From sequence record ON470583: a DNA stretch of 36,681 nucleotides; one strand, 5' to 3'. The position numbers were made by a program, and so were the translations under genes. Below the pieces are notes generated by a model. That model ran no database searches. It worked only from the letters and a program-made list of their open reading frames with translations, and was not told where the DNA came from. Shown here in pieces: positions 1-18,591 of this stretch; the first letter of the stretch is position 1; every line of letters begins with the position of its first letter. The DNA comes from Escherichia phage vB_EcoS-689R5.

Positions 1-1263
1 CTATGGGATAAACTTATTTTTACCAATTGTATAAGGCGGTGCATAAGATTCTCGGCATGCTTCCAGATAATCCGACCACCACTGCATCATCGCTTTGCGG
101 GCTTCCAGGTGCTCTGCCTTATGAATATAAGCCATGCGCACGGTATTGCGCTCCTGATGACTCATCTGGCGTTCTACTGCGTCCTTTGCCCATAAACCCG
201 ATTCCATCAGCGCACTGCATGCCATTGCCCGGAAGCCGTGACCGCAGATATCCTTTTTCGTGTCGTAACCCATCACCCGCAGTGCCTTATTGACCGTGTT
301 TTCACACATTGGCTTATACGGGTTATGGTCGCCGGGGAAGATCAGTTCATTATTACCGGTGATATCCTTAATCTGTTTCAGAATGGCGATGGACTGTTCT
401 GAGAGGGGGACGATATGCGGCATTCGCATTTTTGCCCCGCGGCCGGAATAATGCACGCCAATAATGGGTTCTCGCGTCGCGGGTATCGTCCAGACTCGGT
501 TTGTGAAATCAATCTCTGACCAGCGGGCGAAACGCAGTTCACTGGAGCGAATGAACACATGCAGCATCAGCAGAACGGCATGCCGGGTCAGTTCACGGCC
601 CTGATGATATGCCCCAATACGTTCAAGCAGTTCAGGCAGCCGCTCCAGCGGCAGGGCAGGATAGTGCCGTCTGACAGGAGGTGTGGTCACGCCGCCAAGG
701 TTTGCTGCAGGGTTCGTATCGATTAACTCCTGATGGACCGCATGGCGTATTATGTTACTCAGGTGCTGCCGTGTGCGGGACGCAACCTCCAGCAGACCTT
801 TTTCCTCGATCCCTTTCTGCAGGTCAATGAAATGACGGGGTTTAAGTTCTGATACAGGTAGGTTCCCGATGACCGGAAAGATGTGATTGTTCAGGCTGGC
901 AAGCAGACGGTCGGCGGTGTTCTGCGACCATTTCCTGTTACTTTTATGCCACGCCAGCGCCACGTTTTTAAAAACTTTCTCCGGTGTTCGTGAGCCACGT
1001 ACAGCAGCCCGCTGCTGTACCGGGTTGATATTCAGCGCCAGCATTTTACGGATACCTTCACGTTGCTGTCGCGCATCAGACAGGGAGATGGCTGGATAGG
1101 CACCCAGCGCAATGCGGGATTCTTTACCGCTAATACGGTATTTGAGATACCAGTGGCGGGAGCCACCCGGCTTGACCCGCAGATACAGACTGTGAGAATC
1201 GGAGACTTTAAAGGGTTTATCAGAAGGCTTGAGGGTGCGGATTTTTGCGTCGGTAAGGGATAT
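1..1263 (-). CDS. P4-type tyrosine integrase, about 420 aa; the canonical start position reads ATA rather than ATG
   Basis: Continuous reverse frame 1263->1 translates ISLTDAKIRTLKPSDKPFKVSDSHSLYLRVKPGGSRHWYLKYRISGKESRIALGAYP... and joins the 347-aa track ORF (MLALNINP...), ending at TAG on bases 1-3. The ORF opens after TAA at 1279-1281 and has no ATG/GTG/TTG before Met at 1044. Confidence 0.8.
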   Translation of the reverse strand: MSLTDAKIRTLKPSDKPFKVSDSHSLYLRVKPGGSRHWYLKYRISGKESRIALGAYPAISLSDARQQREGIRKMLALNINPVQQRAAVRGSRTPEKVFKNVALAWHKSNRKWSQNTADRLLASLNNHIFPVIGNLPVSELKPRHFIDLQKGIEEKGLLEVASRTRQHLSNIIRHAVHQELIDTNPAANLGGVTTPPVRRHYPALPLERLPELLERIGAYHQGRELTRHAVLLMLHVFIRSSELRFARWSEIDFTNRVWTIPATREPIIGVHYSGRGAKMRMPHIVPLSEQSIAILKQIKDITGNNELIFPGDHNPYKPMCENTVNKALRVMGYDTKKDICGHGFRAMACSALMESGLWAKDAVERQMSHQERNTVRMAYIHKAEHLEARKAMMQWWSDYLEACRESYAPPYTIGKNKFIP

Positions 1264-1424
1264 ATGGGGGTCACTCCATTATCGAACTAACCCGACCCCA
1301 GATTTGACCACCAATTTTTCCCGATGCGTAGGGTAAAATCAAAATGCACCGAGAAGAGTTTTCACACTAACCTGTTGAATCAACATCAGATAAAGATTCG
1401 CAAGGATGCAAGAAAACAGAAAAT
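1..1424. mobile_element. Edge of an asn-tRNA-associated genomic island (P4-type integrase side); the island body lies left of the window
   Basis: P4-type integrase immediately 3' of tRNA-Asn on the same strand, the usual tRNA-island arrangement. Confidence 0.5.
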
Positions 1425-1500
1425 TGGCTCCTCTGACTGGACTCGAACCAGTGACATACGGATTAACAGTCCGCCGTTCTACCGACTGAACTACAGAGGA
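1425..1500 (-). tRNA. asnT: tRNA-Asn (anticodon GUU)
   Basis: Reverse complement reads UCCUCUGUAGUUCAGUCGGUAGAACGGCGGACUGUUAAUCCGUAUGUCACUGGUUCGAGUCCAGUCAGAGGAGCCA, a 76-nt cloverleaf. Which asn paralog is inferred from the mtfA neighbour. Confidence 0.93.
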
Positions 1501-1600
1501 ATCGTGAGAACGGGGCGCATATTACTTAGCGGTACCTTGTCTGTCAACACTAAATTTCATAAGCCATTTCAATTGGTTAATTAATCTGCAAAGTTGTTAA

Positions 1601-2626: not shown

Positions 2627-2663
2627 CTTGGAATTACTTGGAATATTTTCTTGGAATATTTTC
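2627..2663. repeat. Tandem direct repeats (ttggaatattttc x2 plus a partial copy) inside the 3' end of int, near attL
   Basis: Read directly: cttggaatta / cttggaatattttc / ttggaatattttc; encodes ENIPRKYSK at the integrase C-terminus. Confidence 0.6.
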
Positions 2664-3659
2664 AGGTAACGGGACATCAAGTGTTGGTGAAACTTTAACC
2701 TTCCTGTCATAGATTAGCACTTGCCCTTCGGTTTTGTGACCAGAGAAAAGTTGCTTATCCCGGCTGCTTCCTTCATAGTCTGAAATTCCTTTCGCCTTCA
2801 GATCATGAAAGGTGAAGTCGGTTAAAATACCTGAAATTTTTCCAGCACGATTTCTTGCATCTACCCACATTTCGTTAAAGCCTTTGTACATATATCGGTT
2901 GCCGTATTGATTGCTGATCACATAGGCAGATTTTGGCAACTGTTTTGCTTTTTCGATCGCTGCCTGTAATCGTGGACTCCATGCTTTTATCTGTTTTTTT
3001 CCGGTTTTCCCTTGCTGGATGAATATCCCGTCGTTTCCAATCTGTTCCCATTTCAGCGATAACACATCGGAAACCCTCGCTGCACACAGATAGGCAATTT
3101 CCATTGCGATAAAAACAGGAAGAGGTGCAACGCTTAATACTGCCTGGTATTCTTTGTCGGTTACATATCGTTCGCGGTTTTTGGCCTTGAATTTACTTAC
3201 ACCTGCACATGGGTTAGCCTTCACGTACCCTCGCTCATACCCCCAACTGTAAACACGGGACATACTGCTTTTTTCATGGTTGGCTTGCGTTTTACTCTGC
3301 TCCCCTCTTTTGTCCATGTATCGACGGATGTGTTCTGGTTTTATGGAATCCGCTGGTACCTTACCGAATACGGCAAGCAACTTTTTTTGATGTTGCAGAT
3401 AATCTTTTTGTGTTCTTGGACTAAGGTCACTGTAATAGGCGCTGGCGAGGAATTTTTCCCACAAGCGACCGAATGTCATTGCACGATCGCGATTATTTAC
3501 AGTTTCCTCATACTTTTTCCATAAAGCAGCTAAACCATCCTTGATGGCGGTTAGTGTGACAGATTCTCTGGATGTTGGTTTCCATACATAACTATATTTA
3601 TTTGGGTATACATTTGGAGGTAATTTTTCGTGTTCAGGATTTTTCCTTCGTCTTCCCAT
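2634..3659 (-). CDS. Lambdoid tyrosine integrase
   Basis: 341-aa ORF adjacent to serU with an integrase-like C-terminal region (...FHDLKAKG...LFSGHKTEGQVLIYDRK) and an overlapping upstream xis-like gene. Confidence 0.88.
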   Translation of the reverse strand: MGRRRKNPEHEKLPPNVYPNKYSYVWKPTSRESVTLTAIKDGLAALWKKYEETVNNRDRAMTFGRLWEKFLASAYYSDLSPRTQKDYLQHQKKLLAVFGKVPADSIKPEHIRRYMDKRGEQSKTQANHEKSSMSRVYSWGYERGYVKANPCAGVSKFKAKNRERYVTDKEYQAVLSVAPLPVFIAMEIAYLCAARVSDVLSLKWEQIGNDGIFIQQGKTGKKQIKAWSPRLQAAIEKAKQLPKSAYVISNQYGNRYMYKGFNEMWVDARNRAGKISGILTDFTFHDLKAKGISDYEGSSRDKQLFSGHKTEGQVLIYDRKVKVSPTLDVPLPENIPRKYSK

Positions 3660-13196: not shown

Positions 13197-13637
13197 ATGA
13201 CCACTTTTACCGACAAAGAACTGATTAAAGAAATCAAAGAGCGCATAGGCAGCTTGGACGTTCGAGACAATATTGAGCGCCGTGCTTATGAAATTGCTCT
13301 GGCATCGCTGGAAGCAGAGGCAGTTATGTTCTGTATATCAGGACAAAATGTAGATTCAGAAGAACATGTATCAACCAGCAAAGCGGTTGTTGATGCCTGG
13401 GTTGAAGAATGGAATCAGGTTGACGGAAGTCCTGGCGAACCACTGTACAAAACTATGCCACTCTACTATCACGCTGCCTTGCCAGCGCCGGTAGTGCCGG
13501 AAGAAGCAACTCCGGAAAACGTAGAAATGCTCTCTGGCTATGTTTCCACGTACAAATTAACCGATAGCGAGCGCGATATTGCTGCCGAAATATGGAACGC
13601 CTGCCGCGCCGCTATGCTTCATGGGAAAGGAGAGTGA
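13197..13637 (+). CDS. Hypothetical protein, member of the MTTFT...ALASLEAE paralog family (copy 1)
   Basis: MTTFTDKELIKEIKERIG...[15 protein letters not shown]...; ATG 7 nt after AAAGGAG. Confidence 0.5.
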   Translation: MTTFTDKELIKEIKERIGSLDVRDNIERRAYEIALASLEAEAVMFCISGQNVDSEEHVSTSKAVVDAWVEEWNQVDGSPGEPLYKTMPLYYHAALPAPVVPEEATPENVEMLSGYVSTYKLTDSERDIAAEIWNACRAAMLHGKGE

Positions 13638-13638
13638 T

Positions 13639-13902
13639 ATGGCAACTTTAACAAAAAAAGAACGGGCATGGTTGAACGAATTACAGGACGTTCTTGATCG
13701 CTGCCCATCACCGAAAAAAATTGGTTTTTACACCATTGGCGATAAAAGCATTTACCTGTATGACCTGCGCCGCATGGATGAAATCATGGAGGCTCTTGAT
13801 AATCGTTCGTCAATGGATTGGTGTGTTGCTGTCCATGATATGAATGCAGGGTTTGATGAAAAGATTTTGTTCCCCTCATCAGTTGAAAGCACTGCGGGTT
13901 AA
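13639..13902 (+). CDS. Hypothetical protein (87 aa)
   Basis: MATLTKKERAWLNELQDVLDRCPSPKKIGFYTIGDKSIYLYDL...; preceded by GGAGAG. Confidence 0.45.
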   Translation: MATLTKKERAWLNELQDVLDRCPSPKKIGFYTIGDKSIYLYDLRRMDEIMEALDNRSSMDWCVAVHDMNAGFDEKILFPSSVESTAG

Positions 13903-13912
13903 GGAGTAACAC

Positions 13913-14080
13913 ATGACCACTATTACCAAAGAACGTATTGAATTGTTCATTAAAAATCCGCTTGAAAACGGGCTTACCCGTGGTGAACAAATGGAACTGG
14001 CACGGATTGCGCTGGCATCGCTGGAAGCAGAGCCGGTTGTGTTCTGGTTTGAAAAATATCAAGAAGGGGCTACGGCATGA
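13913..14080 (+). CDS. Hypothetical small protein, MTTFT...ALASLEAE paralog family (copy 2, 55 aa); absent from the ORF track
   Basis: Manual translation [55 protein letters not shown]; AAGGAG SD. Confidence 0.45.
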
Positions 14081-14421
14081 CGACTTTTACCAGAGAGCAG
14101 TTAATAGCTCACGCAGAGGAGACTATTGAAGCACAGAGACTGTGCATACCGGGCACAATCGACCATGACATCATCCGCACATATAAGATGGATATTGCTG
14201 TTCTGGAAATCGCACTGGTATCGCTGGCAGCAGAGCCAGCCGGTAAATTGCATGAATACAAACCAGTGGGATATCAGCGTCTGGTCGATGAGTTAACCAT
14301 GCTGGTAAAGCAGTTAACCTGGCAACTGAGGAAAGCGAAGCCAGACTGCAAATTACCGGATAAGGCGATGAGTTATCTGGAGCGGAACGGACTGATAAGC
14401 GTGGAGGATATTTTACGATGA
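14077..14421 (+). CDS. Hypothetical protein, MTTFT...ALASLEAE paralog family (copy 3)
   Basis: [22 protein letters not shown]...[14 protein letters not shown]...; start overlaps the previous stop. Confidence 0.5.
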
Positions 14422-14711
14422 CTGGCCTGAGGCATTTACAACGGCAGGAATCGCAATGGCTGTGGCGCTGGTGGTGTATTCGATTTGCCGCTGGGGATAA
14501 AAACGGTTTGCGGGAAAAGGAGAGTTAAGTAGAATTGCAGCGGGTGCTTGAGGCTATCTGTCTCAGGCATGAACACCAAAAGGCAGATAGAGAAAAGCCC
14601 CAGTTAACATTACGCGTCCTGCAAGACGCTTAACATTAATCTGAGGCTCAATCTATGAACGGCAAATCTAGGTTAGCCTCTTACGTGCCGAAAGGCAAGG
14701 AGAAGCAGGCT

Positions 14712-18281: not shown

Positions 18282-18357
18282 GGCCCTTTAGCTCAGTGGT
18301 GAGAGCGAGCGACTCATAATCGCCAGGTCGCTGGTTCAAATCCAGCAAGGGCCACCA
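18282..18357 (+). tRNA. tRNA-Ile2-like (anticodon CAU; ileX/ileZ-type, could also read as tRNA-Met)
   Basis: GGCCCUUUAGCUCAGUGGUGAGAGCGAGCGACUCAUAAUCGCCAGGUCGCUGGUUCAAAUCCAGCAAGGGCCACCA; clean cloverleaf with CUCAUAA anticodon loop. Confidence 0.8.
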
Positions 18358-18358
18358 G

Positions 18359-18435
18359 CCGCCACTAGCTCATCAGGAAAGAGCGTCAACCCTTTAAGTT
18401 GAGTGTGCGAGGTTCGAGTCCCCGGTGGCGGTCCA
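18359..18435 (+). tRNA. Atypical tRNA-like gene (anticodon loop CCUUUAA; isotype uncertain, possibly UUU/Lys-like or a pseudo-tRNA)
   Basis: Perfect 7-bp acceptor stem (CCGCCAC/GUGGCGG), U8-A9, D arm, TUCGAGU T-loop and encoded CCA; but C at position 33 and one T-stem mismatch. Confidence 0.5.
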
Positions 18436-18437
18436 GT

Positions 18438-18513
<76 letters not shown>

Positions 18514-18516
18514 TAT

Positions 18517-18591
<75 letters not shown>

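Follow-up and report, generated by a model that had tools for sequence, protein, structure and literature searches.

Integrases of the yersiniabactin island (HPI) and of ICEKp share a three-domain P4-type architecture, a position at the 3' end of an asn tRNA gene, a 17-bp core, a conserved leader and linked ybt genes. The 17-bp direct repeat of the HPI has been described (PMC2801613), and HPIs of E. coli that lack the right-hand repeat have been described as fixed (PMC2606025; PMC8209727). The fixed E. coli HPI at asnT (Schubert et al. 2009, PMC2606025; PAI IV536) has the layout asnT-int-ybtS...fyuA with its right border deleted, and loss of PAI IV536 (HPI) was never detected experimentally (PMC3202238). 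A 347-bp deletion in intB, from bp 124 to 470, is known in other lineages (PMC2801613). The integrase of the pks (colibactin) island at asnW/asnV/asnU is a paralogous P4-type enzyme that targets asn tRNA genes, and that island has both direct repeats (PMC8209727).

Here we describe an integrase gene at the beginning of a 36,681-nucleotide stretch of DNA from sequence record ON470583 (Escherichia phage vB_EcoS-689R5). We call this whole stretch the window. The gene resembles the HPI/ICEKp integrases in all of the features named above, and its product is 97-98% identical in amino acid sequence to the Raoultella and K. pneumoniae copies. It differs from them in its ATA start and in six substitutions at invariant or near-invariant positions, and the island differs in that the right-hand repeat is missing in genomes with the identical integrase. 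Compared with the fixed E. coli HPI, the layout is identical and there is no structural difference; the papers on that island give right-border loss and the 347-bp intB deletion. The pks integrase has a near-identical leader and N-terminus, but it shows only ~80% DNA identity and starts with ATG. No mention of a start-codon mutation of the HPI integrase was found in a literature search to which the older HPI literature did not belong; the texts checked for an ATA start included PMC2606025, PMC2801613, PMC8209727, PMC3202238, and PMC7545054.

We consider it likely that the window gene is a relic integrase disabled at its start codon and translated weakly at most. It would be nearly silent, any trace product would probably be impaired, and it would have no attR partner. 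On this reading it would be an unremarkable case of mobility-gene decay; neither the element nor its immobility is new, and RefSeq already lists the allele with ATA as its start.

The integrase frame and its attachment site

The integrase is encoded on the minus strand at 1263..1 of the window, as 420 uninterrupted codons followed by a TAG stop at 3..1, the same extent as in the PGAP protein WP_024193699.1. The codon at the initiator methionine position of the family (1263..1261) is ATA and is followed by SLTDAKIRTLKPSD; relative to the homologues, its third base has changed from G to A. Upstream, the frame extends as far as 1278, where it meets an in-frame TAA (1281..1279) five codons before the ATA. 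The in-frame stretch from this TAA to codon 74 contains no ATG, GTG or TTG; its near-cognate codons are limited to ATA, ATC, CTG, and ATT. Codon 74 itself, an ATG at 1044..1042 (Met74), is the first canonical start in the frame, and a 347-aa product made from it would lack the arm-type DNA-binding domain. The first-pass annotation had described the frame as open from 1278 to the stop at 1-3 and otherwise intact, with ATA in place of the expected ATG and with no ATG, GTG or TTG before the methionine at 1044, and the sequence bears out this description.

A Shine-Dalgarno-like GGAG lies at 1276..1273 on the same strand with a 10-nt spacer to the ATA, and it is kept in nearly all homologues. We also considered an upstream mini-ORF, ATG-GAG-TGA (1279..1271), as a device for translational coupling. 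It was rejected, as most homologues have GAC-GGAG-TGA and the ATG is not conserved.

Pfam identified Arm-DNA-bind_3 at residues 3-87 (E = 4e-23), Phage_int_M at 98-191, and Phage_integrase at 224-384 in the 420-aa protein. Because of these three domains, the predicted product is assigned to the P4-type tyrosine integrases. The arm-type DNA-binding domain is encoded only if translation begins at the ATA. All of the six catalytic residues checked (R239, K278, H342, R345, H369, and Y379) are kept; five of them (R239, K278, H342, R345, and Y379) are invariant across 78 homologues, and H369 is within the motif MSHQERN.

As in P4-type island integrases, the gene adjoins the 3' end of its target tRNA gene together with an att core. 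The target is asnT, a tRNA-Asn (GTT) gene at 1425..1500 on the minus strand, which is annotated as tRNA-Asn in the RefSeq relatives and is located 161 nt upstream of the ATA. The 17-bp core, CCAGTCAGAGGAGCCAA, occupies 1424..1440 (minus strand) at the 3' end of asnT and corresponds to the left direct repeat (PMC2801613). The 161-nt leader between the tRNA gene and the integrase (1264..1424, minus strand) is the island-side arm of attL. In a cross-species comparison of 79 species, the leader was as conserved as the coding sequence. Such conservation is consistent with an attP arm region containing regulatory or binding sites. The conserved leader includes GTTCGAT..GGAGTGACC.CCA directly before the integrase start. 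Upstream of asnT, a sigma-70-like promoter, TTGACA-17-TAATAT, was predicted from a consensus match at 1519..1547 (minus strand). Read-through from this promoter presumably transcribes the integrase while the island is integrated; the passage of PMC8209727 that cites Rakin et al. says that the integrase is thought to be transcribed in this way from the asnT promoter.

The window ends at the integrase stop codon, and linkage to ybt, irp, and fyuA was read from genomes identical to it at this locus. At least 30 RefSeq E. coli chromosomes are 100% identical to the window over the 1520 nt that run from the integrase stop past asnT. Downstream of the integrase, these genomes carry ybtS, ybtX, ybtQ, ybtP, ybtA, irp2, irp1, ybtU, ybtT, ybtE, and fyuA, and on the other side they carry asnT, mtfA, and serU as the window does. 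In NZ_CP030768.1 and NZ_CP144885.1, for example, the identical integrase is followed by ybtS, ybtX, and ybtQ. Given its domain content, catalytic residues, tRNA-Asn context, and ybt linkage, the window gene is identified by sequence as an HPI (yersiniabactin island) integrase and a member of the HPI/ICEKp family.

Public annotations of this DNA are inconsistent. PGAP gives an ordinary 1263-nt CDS that begins at ATA and has no pseudogene flag, while several submitters give a 347-aa protein that begins at Met74 (e.g. AKA90986.1 of strain VR50). Each of the two forms is found on at least 1000 contigs in the protein collection. The practical relevance of the allele lies mainly in this inconsistency (420 aa vs 347 aa) and in how island mobility is judged, and it opens no new question.

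Origin and frequency of the ATA allele

Homologues were collected from one genome per bacterial species, which gave 80 loci with 68-98% amino acid identity. All 80 loci adjoin the 3' end of an asn tRNA gene. In 79 of 79 loci with the start present, the aligned start codon is ATG, and the protein begins with MSL(T/N/S)D.KIR. Since every one of these loci from other species has ATG at the aligned codon, sequence comparison identifies ATA as the derived state. The first-pass annotation had suggested alignment with homologues as a way of finding out whether the conserved start lies elsewhere, and it lies at exactly this codon.

Alleles within E. coli were counted as exact haplotypes of a 71-nt probe centred on the start, which matched 2211 of 5426 complete genomes. 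E. coli is polymorphic at this position, with both ATA and ATG alleles present. The ATA haplotype of the window was found in 41 complete genomes, and an ATA haplotype with one upstream SNP, that of SE15 and Nissle 1917, was found in 801 and is the commonest start-region haplotype. Two ATG haplotypes, L006 and L004, were found in 537 and 76 complete genomes, respectively. ATA is therefore present in at least 842 of the 2211 genomes with the start region (at least 38%). These amount to ~15% of all complete E. coli genomes, in which RefSeq shows an intact 420-aa HPI integrase despite the lack of a canonical start. Surveys that take an 'intact integrase' as a proxy for mobility would misclassify the ATA strains. 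The allele is also present on 42 metagenome contigs.

These counts bear on whether the A might be a sequencing or assembly error, the true base being G and the start a normal ATG. The single base does differ from all cross-species homologues, as would be expected of an error. However, at least 842 complete E. coli genomes, each sequenced independently, share this A with the 42 metagenome contigs, and at least 30 genomes are 100% identical over 1520 nt. An error that hides an ATG, which the first-pass annotation had named as a possible refutation, is thus excluded for practical purposes.

Non-canonical start codons can be functional in E. coli. The AUU starts of infC and pcnB are conserved among orthologues and are regulatory. 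Like these genes, the integrase has a near-cognate AUN codon at its start behind a Shine-Dalgarno sequence. Unlike them, its ATA is restricted to one intraspecific lineage and is found in no orthologue. On this comparison the window integrase does not belong to the class of conserved non-canonical starts.

Mobility of the island and probable decay of the integrase

As the window reaches no further than the integrase stop codon, the right border was examined in two relatives with the identical integrase, NZ_CP030768.1 and NZ_CM136152.1; the latter also has the adjacent prophage of the window. In both relatives, ~650 bp of AT-rich DNA separate fyuA from a yeeJ-type remnant, beyond which lie chromosomal genes. 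The 17-bp repeat is absent between fyuA and the yeeJ remnant in both genomes, even with up to 3 mismatches allowed, and the core is found in these genomes only inside asn tRNA genes. No excisionase gene is annotated by fyuA in either of them. Two features of a working HPI integration module are thus missing, namely a canonical integrase start in the window and the right-hand repeat in the relatives.

The first-pass annotation had proposed that the ATA codon bears on whether the asn-tRNA island is still mobile. The lesion is real, but it does not decide mobility, because the right-hand repeat is already missing in the relatives. The ATA adds a further lesion to an element that could no longer move. 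It joins right-border loss and the 347-bp intB deletion among the recurrent routes by which the yersiniabactin island of E. coli has lost its mobility module.

To examine selection on the coding sequence, we compared an ATA-lineage set with the consensus of the ATG alleles, leaving out the start codon. The set comprised the window, SE15, and 24 gap-free full-length metagenome copies (26 sequences, 12 haplotypes), one metagenome copy having a premature stop. Among 31 variable sites, 22 were nonsynonymous and 9 synonymous (dN/dS ~0.77), and the nonsynonymous fraction of 0.71 is close to the 0.76 expected under neutrality (binomial p = 0.53). Nonsynonymous and synonymous changes in neighbouring genes on the same contigs numbered 13:13 in mtfA (dN/dS 0.28), 8:8 in ybtS (0.32), and 12:8 in ybtX (0.55); pooled, these genes differ from neutrality (p = 1e-4). 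The nonsynonymous excess of the integrase over its neighbours was not significant (Fisher p = 0.09-0.12). The integrase copy of K. pneumoniae, where the element is mobile, showed ~10 nonsynonymous and 17 synonymous changes, and the four E. coli ATG alleles sampled also had a nonsynonymous bias (~8:2). Relaxation specific to the ATA lineage was therefore not established, as the ATG alleles of E. coli look relaxed too and the contrast with the neighbouring genes falls short of significance. Relaxation probably dates from the immobilisation of the island, ATG>ATA being one of several decay routes.

Several of the substitutions affect conserved residues. In the window protein, G25S, L149Q, M172I, and R271H alter columns that do not vary among 78 homologues, and L29R and E88V alter columns with 92-95% conservation. 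Other ATA haplotypes have L61Q, L121R, G156D, L204P, R244L, and L295P at invariant columns. In the ATA lineage as a whole, 10 of 21 nonsynonymous changes are at invariant columns, while 33% of columns are invariant, and thus such changes are not depleted. Further lesions were found in 7 of the 31 full-length ATA metagenome contigs. One has Q394*, two have deletions (of 10 nt and of 1 nt), and two are rearranged; the other two have low coverage and may contain assembly artefacts. The ORF is still intact over 420 codons in the window and in 24 of these 31 copies. In the STEC genomes NZ_AP027181.1 and NZ_CP025753.1, the HPI integrase starts with ATG but is 347 nt shorter and is flagged as frameshifted. 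The shortening matches the bp 124-470 intB deletion and represents an independent route of inactivation.

The following history would account for these observations. The island would earlier have lost its right-hand attachment repeat, and no recombination directionality factor would adjoin fyuA. With neither of them, the integrase would have no substrate in cis and would be unselected. Within E. coli, a G>A point mutation would then have turned its ATG into ATA, and the ATA allele would have been inherited and spread together with the island. Full-length integrase would be made at trace level at best, because AUA is poorly read by the initiator tRNA and no canonical start precedes codon 74. 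In E. coli reporters, AUA initiation reached 0.02-3% of AUG (bioRxiv 10.1101/063800), and it is from these published data that we infer low translation of the integrase. Loss of recombinase function would likewise be expected. The open frame would survive only because too little time has elapsed, and the integrase would be gathering changes at otherwise invariant positions, with frameshifts or a stop in some members of the lineage. Some active protein may still arise from leaky AUA initiation, since the frame and the six catalytic residues are kept.

The first-pass annotation had offered three outcomes: a translationally silenced gene, initiation at a non-canonical codon, or an N-terminally truncated protein lacking the arm-binding domain. 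These three cover the logical possibilities correctly, and the evidence agrees best with the first two. Initiation at AUA could be more than leakage if a low level of translation were kept by selection, with the rare start serving to tune expression. One benefit might be that a little Int acts in trans on other asn-tRNA islands without destabilising them, and some carriers, such as Nissle 1917 with its pks island, do have a second asn-tRNA island integrase, started by ATG. The intact ORF with all its catalytic residues, the retained GGAG, the choice of ATA as the start by PGAP, the measurable AUA initiation in the reporters, and the very high frequency of the allele are all compatible with such a hypomorph. 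On the other hand, all 79 family members compared start with ATG, dN/dS is ~0.77 with invariant columns changed at or above the chance rate, and the ATA lineage contains extra disabling lesions. Hitch-hiking with ybt genes under selection, together with the clonal composition of the genome collection, accounts for the high frequency. We therefore regard a functional hypomorph as unlikely. A stronger form, in which ATA is a selected, host-beneficial 'domestication' switch that attenuates expression and has spread through E. coli, is very unlikely; if it were true, trace HPI Int would be retained because full expression would destabilise co-resident asn-tRNA islands with two repeats, e.g. pks/colibactin.

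It is highly improbable that the real product is instead an N-terminally truncated integrase from Met74 (window 1044) with only the core-binding and catalytic domains. The Met74 codon is the first canonical in-frame start, the 347-aa product includes Phage_int_M and Phage_integrase, and several GenBank submitters have annotated it. However, the only Shine-Dalgarno-like element is a poor AAGG 11 nt upstream of the ATG, and 54 of 78 homologues have Leu at this position. Moreover, the commonest ATA allele, that of SE15 and Nissle 1917 (801 genomes), carries M74I (ATG>ATA), which argues against selection for the truncated product. Met74 was thus rejected as a conserved internal start. In integrases of the lambda/P4 type, intasome assembly for attL x attR and attP x attB recombination depends on arm-type binding, and therefore an arm-less protein would not move the island. 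The SE15/Nissle 1917-type allele has neither the normal start nor the first internal ATG. A start-codon-disabled relic that is weakly translated at most remains the preferred reading.

Neighbouring elements and a possible pks integrase fusion

On one metagenome contig (OGOU01001349.1, ~13200-14681), an HPI-type leader, ATA, and the initial ~55 nt of an HPI integrase are fused in frame to the pks integrase, with clbS/clbQ/clbP beyond it. In Nissle 1917, the pks integrase starts with ATG. The fusion either arose by gene conversion between the integrases of the two asn-tRNA islands or is a chimera made in assembly. As it is a single metagenome contig and possibly chimeric, we did not accept it as a second ATA-bearing integrase.

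The rest of the window, from 2582 to 36681, is a lambdoid prophage integrated at serU (tRNA-Ser, 2492-2581). It encodes an exonuclease, dicB, cI/cro-like genes, the Q antiterminator, lysis genes, terminase, and an HK97-type head. The prophage integrase ORF (2634-3659, minus strand) is flagged 'frameshifted' by PGAP in near-identical RefSeq genomes, and it is possibly a second decayed integrase, 1.3 kb from the HPI integrase. Just downstream of the Q antiterminator gene, the prophage carries a tRNA cluster at 18282-18591 (CAT, Lys-TTT, Thr-TGT, and Gly-TCC). The CAT tRNA was called Met by ARAGORN, and the equivalent gene is annotated by PGAP as Ile (lysidine type).
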